Part shown: one piece after another, positions 6,745-57,550 of the stretch
Layout of the letters: every line of letters starts with the position of its first letter
Position numbering within the stretch: position 1 is the first letter of the stretch
Assembly (NCBI GenBank): GCA_964550955.1
Contig: CAZKAF010000001.1
Location: forward strand, 503,931-567,930
Direction: 5' to 3'
Length of the DNA stretch: 64,000 bases
Source: an uncultured Candidatus Saccharibacteria bacterium
GTDB taxonomy: Bacteria; Patescibacteriota; Minisyncoccia; Phycocordibacterales; CAIZLB01
Notes under the pieces: model-generated
Database searches by the model: none
Seen by the model: the letters and a program-made list of their open reading frames with translations, nothing else
Told to the model about the DNA's origin: nothing
Translations under genes and position numbers: made by a program

Positions 6745-7407
6745 CTAGAGGGACAAGCCGAGTTCTCGCCCGAGAATCGTATAATTGTCAGCCTTCCTGC
6801 TGGCGTATTGTTCGTTGGCGACAGAACTGTCCCTGACATTCTTAATCAAATCGCGAAACAGGCCTTCCGCTTTAGCGATCAATGCCGTCGAGACGGACAA
6901 GGCGCATTTCGCGCAGTCTTTCTCAAGAAGGAGGTTGATGCTTTTCAGCAGGCCGATGTCCGCCATGGAGAAAAAATAGCCGGCGTCGAATCGGAGCTTC
7001 CAGTCATTCCACAAAAGCGCGATTCTTCTTTCTTCCTCGCCCTGAGTCTTCTGCGACATGCAGAAGTGCGCGTAAATCGCCAGAGCGAGCGCGCAGACTG
7101 CCGCGATGCACGCGACAAGATATTGGCGAGGCAGGCCTTCAAGAAGGATGAGAAGCGTCGCGCCGAGGACGGCGGCGATTGCCGACAGCGCCGCCGCGAA
7201 GCGGAAGCATGATTTCTGATGCTCGCGCAGCTGGGCCAGGAGCAATTCGGCAGGCGTCTTCGACAGGCGCTGCAGCAAGACATACCTGGGACTGATCTTG
7301 ATATTCTGAAGCGTGAACATCAGGCTGAAAACTCCGAGCAGATGATTCTCATTTGCAGTGACAAGATTGACGCCCGTAAGCGTGACGGGAATAGGACTAC
7401 TTTTCAT
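6745..7407 (-). CDS. Hypothetical integral membrane protein
   Basis: ATG at 7407. Several predicted TM helices. No family recognised. Confidence 0.5.
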   Translation of the reverse strand: MKSSPIPVTLTGVNLVTANENHLLGVFSLMFTLQNIKISPRYVLLQRLSKTPAELLLAQLREHQKSCFRFAAALSAIAAVLGATLLILLEGLPRQYLVACIAAVCALALAIYAHFCMSQKTQGEEERRIALLWNDWKLRFDAGYFFSMADIGLLKSINLLLEKDCAKCALSVSTALIAKAEGLFRDLIKNVRDSSVANEQYASRKADNYTILGRELGLSL

Positions 7408-7553: not shown

Positions 7554-9101
7554 CTACTTGCCGGCGATGCCGCCTCCCATCTCTTCAAGCAGATCTCCGA
7601 GTTCCTTGTATCGCGGAACGACGGTCTGGCCTTGAATCATCCAGAATACGCTCGGATTAAATTCCTGAATGAATTCATAGTCATGGCTCACGAGGAGGAT
7701 GGTGCTCTTGGACTGCTTGCAGGCGAAAAGCAGGACTTCCCAGGTGACTTCGTCGATATGGTTCGTCGGCTCGTCGAGTATCAGGAAATCCGGATTGGCG
7801 CCGAACACCAGCGCGAACCTGAGGCGCATCCGCTCTCCGCCCGAAAGCCCCTCGATGGGCGTATTCATTTTCTTAAGATCGAAACGCATGGCCCCGAGCG
7901 CCGCCCGCGCCTCGACTTCGAAGCAGTTCAGCTTCTCCATCACGATCTCGACGGGCTTGGCATTCGCGCTGAACTTCATGTGCTGATCGAAATACGCCCA
8001 TTTGACTCCGTCAGCCCAAGTCACGCTTCCCGTCGTGAAATCATGCTCGCCCGTCAGGCATTTCAGGAACGATGACTTCCCCGCCCCGTTTCTTCCGAGC
8101 AGGGTTATGTGCGCGCCGGTTCGAACTTCCAGGTTCACGTCCCTGAACAGGTCCCTGCCTTCGCCCTTGTATCTGAACGCGCCGTCCTTGACGCGGCAAA
8201 GCAGCTTTCCTCCATGGAGGCCGGACGTTCCCTGCGAAAGCTTTATGGTCGTCTTCTTGTCATCAGGCCGCGCATTTTCCTTATGATCCTTCTTGAGCGC
8301 ATCCAATTCCGCCTTCTTTTTCTGGTACGCGGATATTTCCTTTCCCCTAATGGCCTTTTGCCTCAGGATGACGACCGACGCCTCAAGCTGCTTTATGCGC
8401 TTCGTTTCCGTATCGTATGCGCGCTGCATGCCTCCGATTCTCGCCATCTTGTCCTCGATGTAGTCGTCATAGTTCCCCTCGGACACATGTATCTCACCTC
8501 GGGCAAGCTCCGCGACCTTGGTCGCGATGGAGTCGATAAGGAGCCTGTCATGGGAAATGAAGATGAGGCCGCCCCGGAACTCGTTCAGCATCCGGATAAG
8601 CACCACTCGGCTGACGATGTCTATGTGATTTTCCGGCTCGTCAAGAAGCAGGAAGTCGGGACTGGAAGCGAAAGCGGTGGCGAGGGCCAGGATTTTCTGC
8701 TGGCCGCCGGAAAAGGATCCGCAGAGCGAATCATGAGAACGCTCAGCGTCGAAGCCGAGCTCCCTGGCAATCGAGTACGCCTTCTTCGCAAGGTTCGCGC
8801 TCGCCTCCTTTTCGATGTACTGATCGACAGTCAGCGACATGGACGCATGCGGAAACTCCTGAGGAACGTACACGGAGCGAATGTGCCCCGTCTTTTCTAT
8901 GGTTCCGGACATGACCCCGAGATCGGCCTCCGAGTCGGGAGTGATCTGCTCGACGATAATCTTAAGCAGCGTTGACTTCCCCGCCCCGTTCTCCCCGAGA
9001 ATGCAAAGGCTCTCATTATCCGCGCATTTGAGCGACACGTTGGTAAATATGGACCTGTCGCCATATTCGTATGCGATATTTTTTAAGCTGATTATCTTCA
9101 T
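7554..9101 (-). CDS. ABC-F family ATPase (two NBDs, ribosome-associated translation-factor type)
   Basis: Two Walker A motifs (GENGAGKST and GRNGAGKSS), two LSGG signature motifs, and a charged ~80-aa inter-domain linker. True start is probably the ATG at 9101 (MKIISLKNIAYEY). ORF-track start at 9539 is over-extended across a divergent promoter region. Confidence 0.85.
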   Translation of the reverse strand: MKIISLKNIAYEYGDRSIFTNVSLKCADNESLCILGENGAGKSTLLKIIVEQITPDSEADLGVMSGTIEKTGHIRSVYVPQEFPHASMSLTVDQYIEKEASANLAKKAYSIARELGFDAERSHDSLCGSFSGGQQKILALATAFASSPDFLLLDEPENHIDIVSRVVLIRMLNEFRGGLIFISHDRLLIDSIATKVAELARGEIHVSEGNYDDYIEDKMARIGGMQRAYDTETKRIKQLEASVVILRQKAIRGKEISAYQKKKAELDALKKDHKENARPDDKKTTIKLSQGTSGLHGGKLLCRVKDGAFRYKGEGRDLFRDVNLEVRTGAHITLLGRNGAGKSSFLKCLTGEHDFTTGSVTWADGVKWAYFDQHMKFSANAKPVEIVMEKLNCFEVEARAALGAMRFDLKKMNTPIEGLSGGERMRLRFALVFGANPDFLILDEPTNHIDEVTWEVLLFACKQSKSTILLVSHDYEFIQEFNPSVFWMIQGQTVVPRYKELGDLLEEMGGGIAGK

Positions 9102-9269
9102 GGGCGCAATCGAGCTGGATTTCGGCTGATTTCCATCTACCATAGCATACTTATTGAGTAAATATAAAGTCCGTGTTATGGTTTCGACGGATGCGCGAGA
9201 AGACCGACATGAATGTCCTCTCAAGCTTGCAAGCCCAGAAACAACCGAAACACCGACAGAACCAACAAC

Positions 9270-10205
9270 ATGAACCTTCCAAAATGCTTCGCACCGATGC
9301 TGATCCTGATTCCTCTTATCAGCATCGGCCATCCTGTCCCGGCTCACGCCAAAGCGACAGCGACGACAACATACACCCGTTCGGACAACTACCATGTCAG
9401 CCCGGAAAGCGGCTGCAACGGAGTGCCCCTCGCGGATTTCAGAATCAGGGTCAGCCCGGATGAGAAGACGGACTACAAAGTCACGAAAATTCATCTGGTG
9501 TTCGATCCCTACAGCACCGCTCGGCCTCGGACGCTGCATTTTTCAAGCGCGGGCAGCATGCTTTCATCGGCAGTTGTCCCGGCTGAACCGTACGAGATGG
9601 ACATGCGGACCGAATACTTCGTCAAGAAAGGAACCGAGCTCGCATTCTCAGTGAAAGGGTCCTTCTCTTCCGACACGAAGAACGGCACGGCTTTCAGCGC
9701 CAGAGTCTCGACAGTGACCCTGGAAGCGCAGGATGGCACCCAGAAAACCATTCCCGTCCAAAGAAGCTCCGAGCCTCCATTCCACAGGTTCTATACGAAA
9801 GGATCTGCCCGATGGACGCTTGGCAGCGCCGCCATCTCGGACGTGAAGAACGAAAGAGGAGAAACCGTGTCGCGGATCGCGAATTTTACCTTCACGCTGC
9901 AGGCGATCGGAGGCGACATCGAGGCTCCGACGAACAGCGATTTCAAGATTATCGCGACCAACGGCACGCTGAGGATTCCCTGCATCTGCAGCACGGCGCT
10001 GTCGCCGAACATGCCGGTGGTGCCGGAGATGTCCATCATAACCGTGAAGGCCAGCGCTTTCCTGCCAAAGAGCACGATTCTTCAGTACCTGCAGACGCAA
10101 TTCGCAGTTACGGAGATAAAGTGGAAGCAGGCAGGCGAAGGCGGCATGGAGATCGCTCAAGACTGGGGACTTGAGCAATGCACCACCATGTTCAAAGGCA
10201 AGTAA
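9270..10205 (+). CDS. Hypothetical secreted protein
   Basis: ATG at 9270 gives the signal-peptide-like MNLPKCFAPMLILIPLISIGHPVPAHA. Thr/Ser-rich beta-rich body. Terminator follows. Confidence 0.55.
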   Translation: MNLPKCFAPMLILIPLISIGHPVPAHAKATATTTYTRSDNYHVSPESGCNGVPLADFRIRVSPDEKTDYKVTKIHLVFDPYSTARPRTLHFSSAGSMLSSAVVPAEPYEMDMRTEYFVKKGTELAFSVKGSFSSDTKNGTAFSARVSTVTLEAQDGTQKTIPVQRSSEPPFHRFYTKGSARWTLGSAAISDVKNERGETVSRIANFTFTLQAIGGDIEAPTNSDFKIIATNGTLRIPCICSTALSPNMPVVPEMSIITVKASAFLPKSTILQYLQTQFAVTEIKWKQAGEGGMEIAQDWGLEQCTTMFKGK

Positions 10206-10218
10206 GTCAATCCCCATC

Positions 10219-10256
10219 GGCGCGGCATCCAAAAGATGCCGCGCCTTTTATTTTTA
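10219..10256 (+). terminator. Rho-independent terminator
   Basis: GGCGCGGCATC-CAAAA-GATGCCGCGCC followed by TTTTATTTTT. Confidence 0.7.
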
Positions 10257-10745
10257 AAAGAATCCCGCTGATTCGCGGGCAAAAAGAAAGCCGGCGTTCA
10301 GGGAACGACGGCTTTTGTTGAGGTTGAAAGATTTATTTGACGGCTCCTGAAGACGCCCTGATCTCGGGAGAGATGCTGGTGACTTCAAGCGCCGGACCCA
10401 CTGACTTATGCGGAACATCGCGACGGACAATTCTCGGCTGAGAACATCCGCTGAGATGCGACGCATACATGACGACCGAAAACATTGCGAACAGGCACAA
10501 GGGACCGTGCCTGGCGACAATGTCTGCACAACTACAGGATTTCTCTCTGGTCATACAGGTGCGTGTCTTGTTGGTTGCTGAGCTGTCAACGAGTTCTGCA
10601 GGCGAGCGTCCCGCCTGCAGAACCAATATAAATGCTAGCATGCCATTAAATTTCGTCCAGACGGAGCATCGGGCGGAACGCCGGGTATCAGACAGCGGCG
10701 GCGCAGCTTCTGATTAAAACGGCCCTTCTTTCTGCGAATTATCAA

Positions 10746-25381: not shown

Positions 25382-25766
25382 GAGCGACGCTTGCGTTATT
25401 GCTGACGACCTCCCGACCGTACTGATCCTCCACCCTGATAATGTCCTGCTCGTCGAAGTCCCCGGTGGAAATTTCGAGAATCACGAGCGGCTCGTCTGTT
25501 GACTGGATCCGATGAGTCTTTCCGACGATGACCGAATGCCGCTCGCCCGGTTTTGCCTCGAAGACATCGTCTCCGATATGCAGAAAGCCTTCCCCGGAAA
25601 TGACAACCCAGAATTCGCTTCTATGATTGTGATACTGCAAGCTTGTCGACTGGCCGGGATTGACGGTGATGAGCTTTACCGTGGATTGAAGATTATGAGT
25701 AAACTGATCGAACGATCCCCAGGGCCGATCTTCGTGATATGCATTGAGTTCGGAAGAGTCTTTCAT
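25371..25766 (-). CDS. Cupin-type mannose-6-phosphate isomerase (type II PMI cupin domain, stand-alone)
   Basis: RPWGSF...GQSTSLQYHNHRSEFWVVISG...GERHSV...HRIQ...LVILEISTGDFDEQDIIRVEDQYGR matches the C-terminal PMI domain of ManC-type enzymes. Overlaps the downstream GH130 gene by 11 nt. Confidence 0.7.
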   Translation of the reverse strand: MKDSSELNAYHEDRPWGSFDQFTHNLQSTVKLITVNPGQSTSLQYHNHRSEFWVVISGEGFLHIGDDVFEAKPGERHSVIVGKTHRIQSTDEPLVILEISTGDFDEQDIIRVEDQYGREVVSNNASVAHGI

Positions 25767-25849
25767 TTCACCTTAATTTTAGAACATATATCCGCATATG
25801 CCCAGCACGTTATGTACAGCGCGAATGCGATTCATGCGCGCCCGGCAAA

Positions 25850-25891
25850 GCAAAAGCGCCCGTTTTCAGGAGCGCTTTTGCTTGTATTTTT
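25850..25891 (+). terminator. Orphan rho-independent terminator-like hairpin on + strand (no + CDS upstream)
   Basis: GCAAAAGCGC-CCGTTTTCAGGA-GCGCTTTTGC followed by TTGTATTTTT. Confidence 0.4.
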
Positions 25892-26255
25892 GACCATCTC
25901 TCTTGTTGCGGGTCGTGGAATTGCACCACGTCTATAAGGTTATGCGTACTTCTACAGTTTTCACTGCGCCTGTCTCTCGACAGACTTTGGAGTCTGGACT
26001 ATACCTTCATCTGGAGAACGAATTCTCCAGAGTCCACCGTCTAGTCTCTACACCTTCATGAACATAAATGTTCAAGCTTGGCTCGGTATTGCCATGCGAT
26101 TAAGCAAAGGTTTCACCGAATTTGATGGATGTTTTCCATACAACATCGCTGTCGTATGAGCCCTATTGAGCCTCATGTGCTACTGTTACACTTACCCGCT
26201 ATATTGCACCCTGTGAGTATAATACAAAATCGGAATCGTGCAAGCTTTTCCGGCG

Positions 26256-27029
26256 CTATATAAAATAAAACTCGTCGAAGACTTTCTTGTACAGGCGAAT
26301 GGCCCTGTCAGCTTCCTCTTTCGTCAGTATGTAATCGGCGCCCTCATGCGCGATGATGTTTCGAATGCGATGCGCTTTCCATGCCTCGTCCAGCGTCGTG
26401 AACGAAGACTTGTCAGCCTGCTTCAGCATTTCGCCTATCGAATCGCCAGGGTACCCCATCTGACTGAGCATGTCGTACAGCAATATGTCCGCCTCGAGAA
26501 TGGCGATCCTCCATTCTGACTGGTTCGGGGAACTCGCATGCCGCTCTACCTGTTCCCATTTAGGATTCGCGTACTTTTCCTGCGCAGGCGAATGACCGCC
26601 GGCCGAATGCTGGCCAGGAAGGCCGGGCAAGCCGAAACTTTGAGAGCTTCCCTGCTGCGCGGCCGCTCCGAAGCCTTGCGCGCCTTTCGGCCTCTGCATC
26701 AGGCTCTCCGAATTCGCGACATGGCTTTCGTGCGCGACGACGATTTCCTTATGACCCATCTTTGCATAGAGAATGCCGAGCACCAGCACGAAAGAAATGA
26801 AAATGGAGACGAAGCTCACGCTTTCAAGAAATGATGAGAACGCGTATGAGATGCGATCGCCGATGCCGGGAGTGATGACGTTGACATCGCCGCTGTATCC
26901 GAAAAACATCGCCACCGTCGGAAATATCACGAACAGGACAAGGACGACGACCATGAGGCCGAAAACCCATTCGTTTCCTCCTCCGCTGCTGCTGCTCGCT
27001 GGTTTTGCTGGTTTTTTAGGATCGGCCAT
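26256..27029 (-). CDS. Membrane-anchored protein with C-terminal HEPN-like domain (Rx4HxG motif, DUF4145-like)
   Basis: Gly/Ser-rich N-terminus, two TM helices, low-complexity linker, then a ~100-aa helical domain with KAHRIRNIIAHEG (R-x4-H HEPN signature). Confidence 0.5.
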   Translation of the reverse strand: MADPKKPAKPASSSSGGGNEWVFGLMVVVLVLFVIFPTVAMFFGYSGDVNVITPGIGDRISYAFSSFLESVSFVSIFISFVLVLGILYAKMGHKEIVVAHESHVANSESLMQRPKGAQGFGAAAQQGSSQSFGLPGLPGQHSAGGHSPAQEKYANPKWEQVERHASSPNQSEWRIAILEADILLYDMLSQMGYPGDSIGEMLKQADKSSFTTLDEAWKAHRIRNIIAHEGADYILTKEEADRAIRLYKKVFDEFYFI

Positions 27030-45288: not shown

Positions 45289-45381
45289 GGAGACGTGTCG
45301 GAGTGGTCTAACGTGCCTCTTTGCTAAAGAGGTGTACCCCCTAAAAGGGTACCGAGGGTTCGAATCCCTCCGTCTCCGCCA
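45289..45381 (+). tRNA. tRNA-Ser (anticodon GCT), class II, CCA encoded
   Basis: GGAGACG...CCTCT-TTGCTAA-AGAGG, long variable arm GTACCCCCTAAAAGGGTAC, T-arm GAGGGTTCGAATCCCTC, acceptor CGTCTCC, G73, CCA. Confidence 0.8.
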
Positions 45382-45443
45382 TGGCTGTGCAGGATATCTG
45401 CAGAGCGGATATCCAAGCAGACATGTGTTGCGGGAGCATGTGT

Positions 45444-45472
45444 GGGATCGTACCCATCCCTCCGTCTCCGCA
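45444..45472 (+). repeat. tRNA-3'-end mimic element (GGGATCGTACCCATCCC + copy of tRNA-Ser(GCT) acceptor 3' strand)
   Basis: 16 nt (ATCCCTCCGTCTCCGC) are identical to the 3' end of the tRNA 65 nt upstream. The 17-nt motif is shared with loci at 51302 and 57522. Confidence 0.6.
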
Positions 45473-45538
45473 CCAAGAACTTAGTATCGGAGTGTGGACC
45501 GAGTACCTTAATCCTTGTATTTAGGCTAAGATTGCTAT

Positions 45539-49255: not shown

Positions 49256-49954
49256 ATGAATCATTCATCGCATAGCTGGGCAGTCACTCCAAAGGAGGCA
49301 ATAGAAATACAAAAGCGGCTTCGCGAGGAGGTGAGGCTCGTTCGCCTGACCAAGCCCGTCGAATACATCGGAGGGGCTGATGTCAGCATGAATTTATTTT
49401 CAAAATTCGGCTTTGCCGGATTCGTGACGCTCTCATTCAAAAGCCTGGCTGTCGTGGATCATGCAGTAGTTAAAGATGACATAAAGTTTCCGTACATTCC
49501 CGGACTGCTTTCGTTCAGGGAAATTCCAATGCTCCTGAAGGCATGGAAACGCCTGAAGACGAAGCCCGACGTCATCATCGTGGACGGCGTCGGCATAGCG
49601 CATCCGCGGAGGCTCGGCATCGCCACGCACCTCGGGCTCATTCTCGGCGTACCGACCATCGGCTGCTCCAAGAATCTTCTCATGGGCACGTACGAAGAAC
49701 CGCGAAACGAGCCCGGATCCTTATCGCGCATCTACGACAAATTTAACAAAGACGAGATCATCGGCGCGGCGCTCCGGACGAAAAGGAACGTGAAGCCGGT
49801 ATTCGTATCCCCCGGACATCTCATCACGCTTGAGGAATCCATAGGCATCGTCAAGAAGTCCGTCATGAAGCACAGGCTGCCCGAGCCGACGCGCCAGGCC
49901 CACGACGCGGTCAACGAATGCAGGGTTGCGGCAAAGGCGGACGGGCAAGTATGA
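49256..49954 (+). CDS. nfi: Endonuclease V
   Basis: GGADVS, YIPGLLSFRE, VDGVGIAHPRRLGIATHLG motifs. Confidence 0.85.
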   Translation: MNHSSHSWAVTPKEAIEIQKRLREEVRLVRLTKPVEYIGGADVSMNLFSKFGFAGFVTLSFKSLAVVDHAVVKDDIKFPYIPGLLSFREIPMLLKAWKRLKTKPDVIIVDGVGIAHPRRLGIATHLGLILGVPTIGCSKNLLMGTYEEPRNEPGSLSRIYDKFNKDEIIGAALRTKRNVKPVFVSPGHLITLEESIGIVKKSVMKHRLPEPTRQAHDAVNECRVAAKADGQV

Positions 49955-50656: not shown

Positions 50657-51037
50657 ATGAAAAAACGACCAATACTCATCTCGCTGCTTTGCATCGTCAT
50701 CAGCCTCGGCACATTCGGAATCCTCTACGGGCTCATGTCCGGAACATTCCCGTCTACGAACGGAGAGACCATTCCTGAATGGTTTATCAAGCTCACGGTC
50801 GTCCTGTCCTTCGTATATCTCCTCTCCATCGGATATCTTTGGAAAATGCAGAAGCGCGGCGTCGAGCTCTACATCTTCACCACGCTCATCGCGGACGTTT
50901 CGGCAGTCAGCGTCGGCTTCGGATCATTGTCCGAATTCATCGTGCCCGTCATATTCATCATAATCATGCTGTCCGAATACAAGAACATGTCGGGGCCGAG
51001 CCTCATTCCCAAGAAAATCGCGGAACGAAAGCTGTAA
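50657..51037 (+). CDS. Hypothetical small membrane protein
   Basis: 3-4 TM helices. No family. Confidence 0.4.
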   Translation: MKKRPILISLLCIVISLGTFGILYGLMSGTFPSTNGETIPEWFIKLTVVLSFVYLLSIGYLWKMQKRGVELYIFTTLIADVSAVSVGFGSLSEFIVPVIFIIIMLSEYKNMSGPSLIPKKIAERKL

Positions 51038-51160
51038 ATGCCATCGCGCGGCCGGACGCTTCGGGCGCCTGATCGGCGAGGCGGGACCTGAAGCCGTTTT
51101 CTTTCAACTGCGCGATTCTTTGTAAAAGAATAATTTTGGGTTAGTATGGCGTACACGCAT

Positions 51161-51249
51161 GGAGGCGTGGATGAGTGGTTTAAATCAACGGTTTACTAAA
51201 CCGTCGTTCCCTAACAGGAACCGTGGGTTCGAATCCCACTGCCTCCGCA
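51161..51249 (+). tRNA. Class II (Ser-type, G73) tRNA with apparent anticodon ACT
   Basis: GGAGGCG...ACGGT-TTACTAA-ACCGT, long variable arm GTTCC-CTAACA-GGAAC, T-arm GTGGGTTCGAATCCCAC, acceptor TGCCTCC, G73, CA. Anticodon reading needs tRNAscan-SE/ARAGORN confirmation. Confidence 0.6.
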
Positions 51250-51301
51250 TTGACAGTACGAACCAGCTTCAGCTGGTAAGTGCTGGTAACTTTCGGATAG
51301 C

Positions 51302-51330
51302 GGGATTGCACCCATCCCACTGCCTCCGCA
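51302..51330 (+). repeat. tRNA-3'-end mimic element (GGGATTGCACCCATCCC + copy of upstream tRNA acceptor 3' strand)
   Basis: 17 nt (ATCCCACTGCCTCCGCA) are identical to the 3' end of the tRNA 55 nt upstream. Confidence 0.6.
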
Positions 51331-51420
51331 GAAAACTTTTTATCGGAGTGACCTGAATACCAATCGATAAAGAGTAACCTGAAAACCTGACGCCGCAATC
51401 GCCCAATGGGAAATACATTA

Positions 51421-51452
51421 AAAAAACCGCCATCACTTTGCAATGATGGCGG
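51421..51452 (-). terminator. Rho-independent terminator for the 51502-52125 gene
   Basis: Minus strand reads CCGCCATCA-loop-TGATGGCGG followed by TTTTTTT. Confidence 0.6.
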
Positions 51453-51501
51453 ATTCTCAAAAGAGGTTTCTAACTTCTGCGTAGCGGCAGCCGACTGTCA
51501 G

Positions 51502-52125
51502 TTACGCGCAGGCATCGAAGACGGCCTTCTCGACCTTCACCCTTTCGGCAAGGCTGCTCAAAGTTTTAAGCTTTTCTTCAGTGCTGGTGTGCCAATATTC
51601 AATCAATGCCCCAATTTCGCTCCACAATTCCTCCCTTAAAGGAGATGCGGCCAATGCATTGATGTTTGAGGGAATAATTTCGATTGGCTGCAGTTCGAAA
51701 AACCTGGTCACCATGCTCCCTGAGTCGCAACACGCAGGATCTTCATTTTTTCTCAAATCAGCACAGACCGTCGCGGTGACCCACTGTTTTTTCCTCGTAA
51801 ATCCCCACAAGGACATGGATACCGTCTGACCAATCTTGAGGTCTTTATACATCTCTGATGTGTCCATGACGAAGATACCGCTAGTCGTGCTGCCGAACCT
51901 TGCCGCTTTAGCCCACTTATCTTTGTCGTCTTCGAGACGTCTGTGATACGGACCATGACTCTTCGACCAGTATGAGGGATATCGTATCCCGCCAATCTTA
52001 TCCAAGGTCATTGAATCAAGAAGAGGGCTGATCATTTCGATACGGTCCCCGATGAGTTTTTTCCATTCTGCTGGCGTGGTCGGCTTGCGAACGCCGAACA
52101 TTTTGACTGTACTTACTGTCTTCAT
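51502..52125 (-). CDS. Hypothetical protein (207 aa) in islet next to the class-II tRNA
   Basis: ATG at 52125, terminator downstream. No recognisable family. Lower-GC context. Confidence 0.5.
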   Translation of the reverse strand: MKTVSTVKMFGVRKPTTPAEWKKLIGDRIEMISPLLDSMTLDKIGGIRYPSYWSKSHGPYHRRLEDDKDKWAKAARFGSTTSGIFVMDTSEMYKDLKIGQTVSMSLWGFTRKKQWVTATVCADLRKNEDPACCDSGSMVTRFFELQPIEIIPSNINALAASPLREELWSEIGALIEYWHTSTEEKLKTLSSLAERVKVEKAVFDACA

Positions 52126-52770: not shown

Positions 52771-53358
52771 ATGGCTCCGAAACCTTTCATCACGGAGGCG
52801 ACCTCCGTAACGGACGAGCTCCTCAACGTCATCGCTCATTTGCCCACGGCAAGCCTCTCCGTCACGGTCGAAAATGGCTTCTTCAGGAAATTGACTGACG
52901 CTCACTTCATGCGCATCGCCGTGTCGTTGGCGAGGAAGGGCTACGACGAAGGCGGCTGCCCCATCGGAGGCGTCATCATAGATAATGAGACTCGTCAGAT
53001 TGTCGGCAAAGGCCACAACACGCTCGTGCAGGAAAGCCATCCGTACAATCACGGGGAGACGTCGGCCATCCGCGATGCCGGTCGCAAGGATTTCAGCAGG
53101 ATGACCATCTTCACCACGCTCAGCCCGTGCGATGTCTGCGCGGCACTGATATACATGCGTCAATTCAGCAGAGTAGTGGTCGGAGACGTTACCAATGCTT
53201 CGGGAAATGAAAGCATGCTCAGGGACAAAGGCGTGCGAGTCGATGTCCTGGAAGATGCCGCGGGCGCAGAGCTGTACGCCAGATACCGCAAAGAAAAGCC
53301 GGAGCTCGACCTTGAAGACTGGAAAGGCCTGGCCGCGGTCAAGCAGCAAAATCCATGA
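52771..53358 (+). CDS. CDA-fold cytosine/guanine deaminase (yeast Fcy1-like)
   Basis: GGCPIGGVII, HGETSAI (HxE zinc motif), SPCDVC (PCxxC). Alignable with yeast cytosine deaminase. Start uncertain: ATG at 52771 or 52909. Confidence 0.7.
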   Translation: MAPKPFITEATSVTDELLNVIAHLPTASLSVTVENGFFRKLTDAHFMRIAVSLARKGYDEGGCPIGGVIIDNETRQIVGKGHNTLVQESHPYNHGETSAIRDAGRKDFSRMTIFTTLSPCDVCAALIYMRQFSRVVVGDVTNASGNESMLRDKGVRVDVLEDAAGAELYARYRKEKPELDLEDWKGLAAVKQQNP

Positions 53359-53867
53359 GATATCTCGCGCACGTGGAAGAAGGACAAGGAATCAAGTGGA
53401 TGCAAGAGGCCGCTCAAGTCGCCGGCGAAGCCCTCTGCCTTAAGGCAAAATGCGGAACCGTCATCGTCAAGGACGGCGAGATAATCGGCCGCGGATACAA
53501 TGCTCCCCCGCTCGACAACATCGAAGGCCGAAGATGCCTCGACGCGTATGATTTCTCCGGAAAGCCGAGGTACGACCATACCTGCTGCATGCATGCGGAA
53601 TGGAGGGCCATCATGGACGCGCTGAGAAATAATTCAGAAAAGATACAAGGCTCTCAGCTTTATTTCACCAGGGTCGATGATGAAGGAAACATCAAGAAGT
53701 CCGGCGACCCGTTCTGCACCGTATGCAGCAGATTCGCATTGGATGCGGGCATCGCGGAATTCATGCTTTGGAATGACACGGGAATCTGTTCCTACCCTAC
53801 TGACGAATACAACAAGCTGTCTTACGCGTACAGGCATCCAAAGGAGGAGGAGGCGAAGCGGATTTAG
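53355..53867 (+). CDS. CDA-fold dCMP-deaminase-like (ComEB/dCD family) zinc deaminase
   Basis: CCMHAEWRAIMDA (C/HAE zinc motif) and PFCTVCSRFA (PCxxC). Start ATG overlaps the upstream stop (ATGA). Confidence 0.7.
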   Translation: MRYLAHVEEGQGIKWMQEAAQVAGEALCLKAKCGTVIVKDGEIIGRGYNAPPLDNIEGRRCLDAYDFSGKPRYDHTCCMHAEWRAIMDALRNNSEKIQGSQLYFTRVDDEGNIKKSGDPFCTVCSRFALDAGIAEFMLWNDTGICSYPTDEYNKLSYAYRHPKEEEAKRI

Positions 53868-57378: not shown

Positions 57379-57467
57379 TGGAGAGATGGCAGAGCGGTCG
57401 AATGTACCACCTTGGAAAGGTGGCATGGGAGCAATCCCATCGGGGGTTCGAATCCCCCTCTCTCCGC
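57379..57467 (+). tRNA. tRNA-Ser (anticodon GGA), class II
   Basis: GGAGAGA...CCACC-TTGGAAA-GGTGG, variable arm ATGGGAGCAATCCCAT, T-arm GGGGGTTCGAATCCCCC, acceptor TCTCTCC, G73, CA. Confidence 0.8.
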
Positions 57468-57521
57468 ATGACCTGTCCGAATTCTGTCGAAGACAGAATA
57501 AGGCAGGGCAATTGCGATGGC

Positions 57522-57550
57522 GGGATCGTACCCATCCCCCTCTCTCCGCC
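57522..57550 (+). repeat. tRNA-3'-end mimic element (GGGATCGTACCCATCCC + copy of tRNA-Ser(GGA) acceptor 3' strand)
   Basis: 16 nt (ATCCCCCTCTCTCCGC) are identical to the 3' end of the tRNA 57 nt upstream. A third degenerate copy lies at 57610-57638 (gggattgcaagcatctccatctctctgcc). Confidence 0.6.

Follow-up and report, generated by a model that had tools for sequence, protein, structure and literature searches.

Background

The closest described relatives of the tRNA gene considered here are the bacterial tRNA-Ser(GCU) genes of the serV type. They share with it the class-II architecture with a long variable arm, G73, the acceptor start GGAG and the codon box. Their anticodon loop, UU-NCU-AA, is identical except for position 34, which is G34 in these tRNAs and A34 in our gene, and the latter moreover stands on a separate paralogue backbone (0.67 identity to the GCU tRNA of the same genome). 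A34 in the Ser/Arg box has been described in reviews as universally missing and as lying outside the set of any domain of life (PMC8007984). A preprint from 2026 repeats the absence of A34 from split boxes and builds a Ser-tRNA(ACU) artificially to study it (10.64898/2026.05.15.725136); in both publications the reason for this absence is an open puzzle.

Encoded A34 is known from other contexts. It occurs in the inosine-34 tRNAs, namely tRNA-Arg(ACG), which is served by TadA, and tRNA-Leu(AAG) of the Lactobacillales. The former has U33-A34-C35 in common with the ACU tRNA, whereas position 36 is G36 there and U36 here. A natural unmodified A34 is known from tRNA-Thr(AGU) of Mycoplasma capricolum (Andachi 1987 and Inagaki 1995, as cited in PMC11066159). 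As far as it is described there, this is likewise a genomically encoded A34 in a small-genome bacterium, and it stays adenosine, as is presumed for the ACU tRNA. It differs in serving a four-fold box, where loose reading is harmless. The ACU tRNA belongs to a split Ser/Arg box, so that loose reading would put serine at arginine codons.

The same anticodon has been engineered in E. coli, both in an orthogonal M. jannaschii tRNA(ACU) (PMC11066159) and in a Ser-tRNA(ACU) (10.64898/2026.05.15.725136). These tRNAs read AGU almost exclusively, are not deaminated and are tolerated. The M. jannaschii tRNA(ACU) was not deaminated by TadA and decoded AGU at 9.4% and AGG at 0.36%, with AGC and AGA below detection (PMC11066159). 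Overexpression of the Ser-tRNA(ACU) was not harmful, and growth measures improved (10.64898/2026.05.15.725136). In contrast to these laboratory constructs, whose natural counterpart was thought nonexistent, the ACU tRNA of Patescibacteria is natural and conserved.

Genomic context

The 64,000-nucleotide stretch of DNA analysed in this study (the window) carries genes of bacterial, chromosomal type, among them a type IV pilus operon, Asd, endonuclease V and RecG. Its protein-coding stretches share 64-70% DNA identity with contigs of Patescibacteria (CPR), and for two local proteins the only named homologues stem from a "Candidatus Paceibacterota" MAG. The GC content of 52% is unusually high for Patescibacteria. 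Synteny was followed through the 126-aa upstream protein, whose sole homologue (63% identity) did not lie beside a tRNA. Positions 51000-51520 were also searched for consensus promoters and, with permissive settings, for Rfam families, which added nothing. Elsewhere in the window, a group I intron was found on the minus strand at 25975-26178 (Rfam, 55.2 bits). Its surroundings showed no rRNA or tRNA gene that could be its host, and the ORFs beside it (25512-25937 and 26256-27029) had no Pfam match.

The tRNA gene with the anticodon ACT is flanked by the gene of endonuclease V (49256-49954). Two genes of CDA-fold deaminases lie 1.5 kb downstream of it, a yeast-type cytosine deaminase (52771-53358; PDB 1ysd, E 7e-24) and, overlapping it, a dCMP-deaminase-like gene (53355-53867) assigned by homology. 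Endonuclease V and the two deaminases hint at inosine metabolism, but homology points to nucleotide salvage and repair, and in other loci these genes are not regularly linked to the tRNA. The deaminase pair was considered as a dedicated A34 deaminase (ADAT-like and heterodimeric). This was rejected, as the two are a cytosine deaminase and a dCMP-deaminase-like protein, not TadA.

Gene, fold and anticodon

ARAGORN reported six tRNAs in the window, three of which were tRNA-Ser with the anticodons GCT (45289-45381), ACT (51161-51248) and GGA (57380-57467). The Rfam tRNA model assigned 55.3 bits to the ACT gene (gathering score 29), level with the other two tRNA-Ser (54.2 and 56.7 bits), and the resulting alignment is that of a class-II tRNA whose loop reads UUACUAA. 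The gene extends on the plus strand from G1 to G73 (51161..51247) and does not encode CCA. It is of full length, with no truncation and no broken stems. The cloverleaf is formed by a 7-bp acceptor stem, in which G7-U66 is a wobble pair, a D arm with G18-G19, the anticodon arm (51188..51204), a long variable arm of a 5-bp stem and a 6-nt loop (51206..51221), which is a class-II feature used by SerRS, and the T arm GTGGG-TTCGAAT-CCCAC (51223..51239). The T arm is supported by the Rfam alignment and by pairing across the 118 sequences analysed below, and the variable arm by changes on both sides of its five pairs in the same set. The acceptor pairs G1-C72, G2-C71 and A3-U70 as well as G73 are common to the ACT, GCU and GGA tRNA-Ser of the window.

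By direct reading, the strands ACGGT (51188-51192) and ACCGT (51200-51204) enclose the loop TTACTAA (51193-51199), which places A34, C35 and U36 at 51195..51197. This anticodon is outside the canonical serine set (NGA or GCU), though it is complementary to the serine codon AGU. ARAGORN and Rfam gave the same anticodon. Hence, the class-II tRNA with serine identity elements, good cloverleaf and apparent anticodon ACT described in the initial annotation was confirmed, with the fold as drawn there. The ARAGORN run which had been proposed as a check returned tRNA-Ser(act) and no canonical anticodon through a different arm register. Such a register is excluded by the perfect anticodon stem with U33 and A37 in place. 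A misfold by eye, which had been considered, can be dismissed, as two programs produced the same fold and anticodon. The range originally given for the gene, 51161-51249, needs correction only at its end, since 51249 lies outside the tRNA.

Independent Logan assemblies of three sequencing runs provided further information on the gene (DNA runs of the source samples: SRR16797976, SRR16797977 and SRR16797981). It was identical in the two contigs that span it, and the contig of the third run ends about 20 nt into the gene. The identity in independent assemblies argues against an error of one assembly as the source of A at position 34.

Conservation and structural constraint

At least 119 species-level genomes contain the exact ACT anticodon arm, and almost all of them belong to the Patescibacteria. 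One genome per species was scanned and ACT was fixed in the pattern, so this count covers carriers only and says nothing on CPR genomes without the gene. The tRNAs obtained were near-identical to the ACT tRNA of the window. Among the first 80 record titles, Patescibacteria lineages were named in 69, while 8 were unclassified and 3 belonged to other phyla. Paceibacterota, Nomurabacteria, "Saccharibacteria" MAGs, Parcubacteria, Levyibacteriota, Woesebacteria and Taylorbacteria were among the lineages named.

Because the genome scan had required ACT, JGI metagenomes were scanned with an anticodon-blind backbone pattern (GGATGAGTGGYTTAAATCAACGGT-N7-ACCGT), which resulted in at least 120 loci. Among the matches listed, the loop was TTACTAA in 113 of 120 cases and TTGCTAA in 7 of 120, with no other loop; A34 was thus present in 94% of the listed matches. 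For the D-loop T variant, ACT was found in 103 out of 103 loci among the matches listed. Two orthologues outside the search patterns had kept ACT with compensated anticodon stems, namely ACAGT/ACTGT in locus L364, which was found by synteny, and GCGGT/ACCGC in L123 (2709-2793).

Viral contigs were searched for exact matches of the anticodon arm, any base being allowed at position 34, and yielded 108 loci, 98 with G, 7 with A and 3 with T. The three T34 matches were not tRNA-Ser. Phage-type arrays with tRNA-Ser(ACT) were observed on other backbones, usually without an adjoining tRNA-Ser(GCT), in L011/L104, L012, L028/L086/L093 and L080 (IMG/VR contigs) and in L137. This indicates that the anticodon is not confined to CPR chromosomes.

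A set of 118 distinct ACT tRNAs was aligned and scored against the cloverleaf. Standard pairing was found in 98.7% of 2950 stem cells compared to 84.7% in shuffles, and paired stem cells fell to 29-57% in a control in which the partner was slid by 1-3 columns. Changes on both sides occurred in 16 of the 25 pairs (10.2 in shuffles). The number of compensatory cells was 402, compared to 108 in shuffles, and none of 500 shuffles reached this value. Each of the acceptor pairs 5:68, 6:67 and 7:66 showed three or four pair types, and all five pairs of the variable arm covaried. There were 95 distinct variable arms, and all correctly parsed ones form hairpins of 4-6 bp. G73 and the first three acceptor pairs were invariant in 118 out of 118 sequences. 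The loop TTACTAA was likewise found in all 118, which is partly the result of selection by the pattern. At position 7:66, the copy of the window has G-U and most relatives have G-C. The nearest relative, L243, differs from this copy only by the G-U and by one compensatory pair in the T stem.

The pairing, the covariation and the invariance of G73 and the acceptor pairs argue for a working tRNA with serine identity and against a pseudogene. The ACT tRNA is a conserved family, neither a one-off nor a pseudogene. A pseudo-tRNA, one of the possibilities raised initially, is contradicted by the conservation of the gene across hundreds of genomes and by the compensatory changes in its stems. The unusual isoacceptor that had been proposed next to it is borne out by this conserved and structurally constrained ACU family.

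Relation to the tRNA-Ser(GCU)

The partner tRNA-Ser(GCU), a predicted reader of AGC and AGU, is located on the plus strand at 45289..45381 (ARAGORN, Rfam), with CCA encoded. A tRNA-Ser(GCT) was found within the same few-kb stretch as the ACT gene in 71 out of 110 genome loci and in 70 out of 111 metagenome loci, at a median distance of 267 nt and 180 nt, respectively, and often in divergent orientation. In the window, the two genes are 5.8 kb apart. The median identity between genomes was 0.88 for the ACT tRNAs and 0.82 for the GCT tRNAs, in contrast to 0.67 between the ACT tRNA and the GCT tRNA of the same genome. These values point to two old paralogue families, which rules out a recent or repeated G34A mutation of the GCU gene as the source of the ACT gene. 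The putative ACT and GCT tRNAs coexist, and ACT has not replaced GCT. An especially dense arrangement was observed on a Levyibacteriota contig (L123, 102-2793), where six tRNA-Ser in the order CGA, TGA, ACT, GCT, TGA and ACT are clustered with one tRNA-Arg(GCG); the two ACT copies of this cluster are divergent.

Genetic code and codon demand

Predicted proteins of the window and of 119 CPR loci were aligned mutually, and the residues facing each codon were tallied. AGA faced R in 51% and K in 20% of cases and AGG faced R in 49% and K in 17%, the same R/K pattern as that of the CGN codons. AGT and AGC faced S in 38% and 33% of cases, resembling the TCN codons. Within the window, AGA sites mostly align with R/K, and the 7 alignable AGT sites are too thin to be read on their own. 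The genetic code is standard, with AGR as arginine and AGY as serine. A reassignment of AGA to serine, as in invertebrate mitochondria, was considered and ruled out, as AGA and AGG align as CGN codons do. In the carrier genomes the AGN box is split into AGY (serine) and AGR (arginine), and is not four-fold degenerate.

In the pooled 151 other carrier loci, AGT accounts for 15.2 and AGC for 6.8 per 1000 codons, and AGA is the most used arginine codon (11.9 per 1000). The AGT share of AGY has a median of 0.70 over 152 carriers, including the window, and drops with rising GC (Spearman -0.49). The window, with the highest GC content of these 152 carriers, contains 70 AGT and 389 AGC codons. AGT is the rarest serine codon there, with 3.8 per 1000 codons. 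A tRNA that reads only AGU would therefore have little work in this genome, which fits either a relaxed need or partial reading of AGC.

Insertions behind the tRNA-Ser genes

Duplications of att sites occur at the 3'-ends of tRNA genes. In the window, inserts of 64-76 nt were found behind all three tRNA-Ser and behind none of the tRNAs for Thr, Asp and Met. Each insert ends with G(C/T)GGGAT(C/T)G(T/C)ACCC. Behind it, the segment of the respective tRNA from the T-loop to the 3'-end recurs as an exact copy of 16-17 nt. Behind the ACT gene, the insert body of 64 nt (51250..51313, plus strand) lies in the tRNA trailer, outside the tRNA, and consists of a hairpin and then GCGGGATTGCACCC. It is followed by the 3'-mimic (51314..51330, plus strand), which by direct reading is an exact 17-nt second copy of 51233-51249 (ATCCCACTGCCTCCGCA). 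The same arrangement is present behind the GCU tRNA (copy at 45456-45471; insert and copy region 45380-45471) and behind the tRNA-Ser(GGA) (57380..57467, plus strand; ARAGORN, Rfam), with the copy at 57534-57549 and the insert and copy region at 57468-57549. The previous assignment of the ACT tRNA to a group of three tRNAs with a 3'-mimic was therefore correct.

In a relative, L361 (6844-6990), the site is empty, and the tRNA-Ser(GCT) is directly joined to the sequence which, in the case of the window, is located behind the repeat. The more distant relative L364 carries a homologous insert behind its GCT tRNA with a nested 25-nt insertion, and a tandem series of three 3'-end copies behind its ACT tRNA (insert and copy regions 7089-7330 and 9156-9520). 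Homologous inserts were found in L364 and L366. Beyond these and the lineage of the window, none of about 360 fetched loci contains the insert bodies. They were absent from the 119 genome loci and from about 240 orthologous CPR loci, and an exact-pattern scan of JGI metagenomes for the 3'-mimic gave 0 matches. The 3'-mimic as a widespread CPR feature was rejected on account of this restriction to the lineage of the window and L364/L366.

An exact direct repeat of a tRNA 3' segment was thus found together with an empty site in a relative, as is typical of att-type integration. The fragments of tRNA genes left by integrating elements (van der Gulik et al. 2023, PMC9897764) resemble the situation in the window in the direct repeat, the empty site and the tandem copies elsewhere. 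In contrast to them, the inserts of the window are only 64-76 nt long, contain no integrase or gene, and follow three tRNA-Ser with their own matching repeats. Neither a recombinase nor cargo was found between the repeats, and the inserts have no ORF. They look like miniature insertions targeting the 3'-ends of tRNA-Ser genes, and are read as the footprint of such small putative insertions in one Paceibacteria sub-lineage. An RNA minihelix or an alternative tRNA 3' strand was also considered. In minimum free energy folds, the copy is paired with an upstream segment and, if the long fold is considered, with the 5' strand of the tRNA itself, three or four copies being too few to judge covariation of this pairing. 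As the ACT-type copy of L364 does not preserve the 5' partner, this idea is not supported.

Two further observations concern the surroundings of these tRNAs. About 1.3 kb downstream of the tRNA-Ser(GCT) of L361, genes of a large serine recombinase and of HamA (Hachiman defence) were found (8200-10411); this region may be an island beside the tRNA. The motif (T/A)AGTATCGGAGT(G/C) is found behind the tRNA-Ser or their repeats in the window (45490-45505 and 51337-51350) and directly after the tRNA-Ser(ACT) in the distant CPR genomes of L133, L157, L201 and L227. This motif may represent a -10 promoter element or mark the beginning of a conserved transcript.

Proposed decoding and alternative explanations

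We consider it probable that the gene encodes a functional tRNA-Ser(ACU), an old paralogue conserved in Patescibacteria, whose A34 is not inosine and which decodes AGU by Watson-Crick pairing. SerRS recognises its tRNAs without regard to the anticodon. Following the identity rules of this enzyme, the ACU tRNA should be charged with serine via the long variable arm, G73 and the pairs G1-C72, G2-C71 and A3-U70. A34 most probably stays adenosine, or is at least unconverted to inosine, because the clade appears to be without the TadA/tRNA-Arg(ACG) system. The tRNA would then read AGU with Watson-Crick pairs at all three positions, the GCU tRNA would read AGC and be able to wobble on AGU, and AGA and AGG would stay arginine. 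The ACU tRNA would serve the main AGY codon in typical AT-rich carriers, and the GC-rich genome of the window keeps the gene intact though AGU is rare.

The initial annotation had suggested that A34 might be modified to inosine. Deaminated by TadA or another deaminase, the tRNA would read AGU, AGC and partly AGA, which would be useful in the GC-rich genome of the window, where AGC by far exceeds AGU. U33-A34-C35 matches the context in tRNA-Arg(ACG), A-to-I conversion has been inferred for a split-box Phe-AAA tRNA in E. coli (10.64898/2026.05.15.725136), and the two deaminase genes are located nearby. However, these genes do not encode TadA, and among about 240 CPR loci a deaminase homologue was found near the tRNA in only two others, so that the linkage is inconsistent. 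Neither tRNA-Arg(ACG) nor TadA was detected in the window or, as a TadA-like ORF or otherwise, in these loci, each of which is a small sample of its genome. CPR appear to be without tRNA-Arg(ACG) and to use Arg(GCG) instead (Shulgina and Eddy, PMC8629427). The Arg(GCG) genes in two ACT-carrying loci (L123, 282-355; L183, 2014-2088) fit this reported lack and hence that of an inosine-34 system. Furthermore, the loop UUACUAA has U36 and not G36 of the Arg2-type TadA substrate A34-C35-G36, and E. coli TadA leaves the ACU anticodon unmodified (PMC11066159). An inosine-bearing tRNA-Ser would also be costly, since AGA, the top arginine codon in the carriers and still aligning with arginine, would be misread. 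Taken together, this makes conversion to inosine unlikely.

It is also quite unlikely that the family is functional elsewhere and the copy in the GC-rich genome of the window is redundant and heading for loss. The scarcity of AGT, the GC content at the upper end of the carriers, G7-U66 in place of G-C and the insertion directly after the 3'-end of the tRNA would fit such a decay. On the other hand, every stem is intact, the Rfam score is level with those of the other tRNA-Ser, a compensatory T-stem pair accounts for the remaining difference from L243, the insertion restores a perfect 3'-end, and the gene is identical in both spanning assemblies. Some Gram-positive bacteria use non-proteinogenic tRNA isoacceptors in cell-wall synthesis. 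A role outside the ribosome, either as serine donor for cell-envelope chemistry or as regulatory RNA, would leave the odd anticodon merely tolerated, and non-canonical roles have been proposed for "missing" tRNAs (Ehrlich et al., PMC8007984). We regard such a role as very unlikely: the invariant loop, even if partly due to the search pattern, and the predominance of A34 among the listed anticodon-blind matches argue that the anticodon itself is under selection, G18-G19 and the T-loop TTCGAAT are of the canonical type, in contrast to known cell-wall tRNAs, and the codon AGU is abundant in the carriers. A foreign tRNA, delivered by a phage or by a small element that left the downstream copy of the 3'-end, would be compatible with tRNA-Ser(ACT) in phage arrays (7 of the 108 viral matches) and with the insertion and duplicated 3'-end behind the gene. 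Nevertheless, it is hardly conceivable, as the backbone in the window matches the chromosomal CPR family and not the phage-type backbones, and the local GC content resembles the rest of the window. The earlier idea that the tRNA was captured with the downstream element can be discarded for related reasons: the element is missing from about 240 orthologous loci, also follows the GCU and GGA tRNA-Ser, and its site is empty in a relative. Compared to the element, the tRNA family is much older and more widespread, so that the element did not bring it.

Implications of a tRNA-Ser(ACU) in Patescibacteria

Coming back to the reading as an AGU-specific tRNA-Ser, we lean on balance towards a more general view, in which Patescibacteria break the rule that A34 does not occur in split boxes and employ an unmodified, or novelly modified, A34 tRNA-Ser(ACU) as dedicated AGU reader in a lineage without an inosine-34 system. 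The premise of the initial annotation that bacterial A34 is essentially confined to tRNA-Arg(ACG) agrees with reviews, but fails for this clade. Our full-text literature search, whose coverage is incomplete so that an earlier mention is possible, found no description of tRNA-Ser(ACU) in CPR. Presumably, such genes sit in many public MAG records, annotated without comment. The predicted tRNA is a natural and clade-wide counter-example to the universal absence of A34 from split boxes, and it occurs in a lineage reported to be without the deaminase that normally masks A34. This opens several points to experimental test, namely whether an unmodified A34 is tolerated in vivo, how misreading of AGA is avoided, and which property of CPR translation favours the retention of a Watson-Crick reader of AGU. 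If the proposed decoding is true, these bacteria would allow the avoidance of A34 in all other organisms to be studied in a natural setting. In practice, a tRNA-Ser(ACU) in a CPR genome should not be treated as an error or pseudogene by annotation pipelines or in genetic-code screens.

Another unusual anticodon was observed in the loci fetched in this study. tRNA-Ile(UAU) was common in CPR loci, with 9 genome and 16 metagenome loci including L122, L130, L154 and L173. Reviews describe the UAU anticodon as lost in prokaryotes, and its presence in CPR thus is a second departure from the usual bacterial anticodon set. Together with tRNA-Ser(ACU) and tRNA-Arg(GCG), it would constitute distinct wobble rules of CPR, provided that the proposed AGU reading holds.
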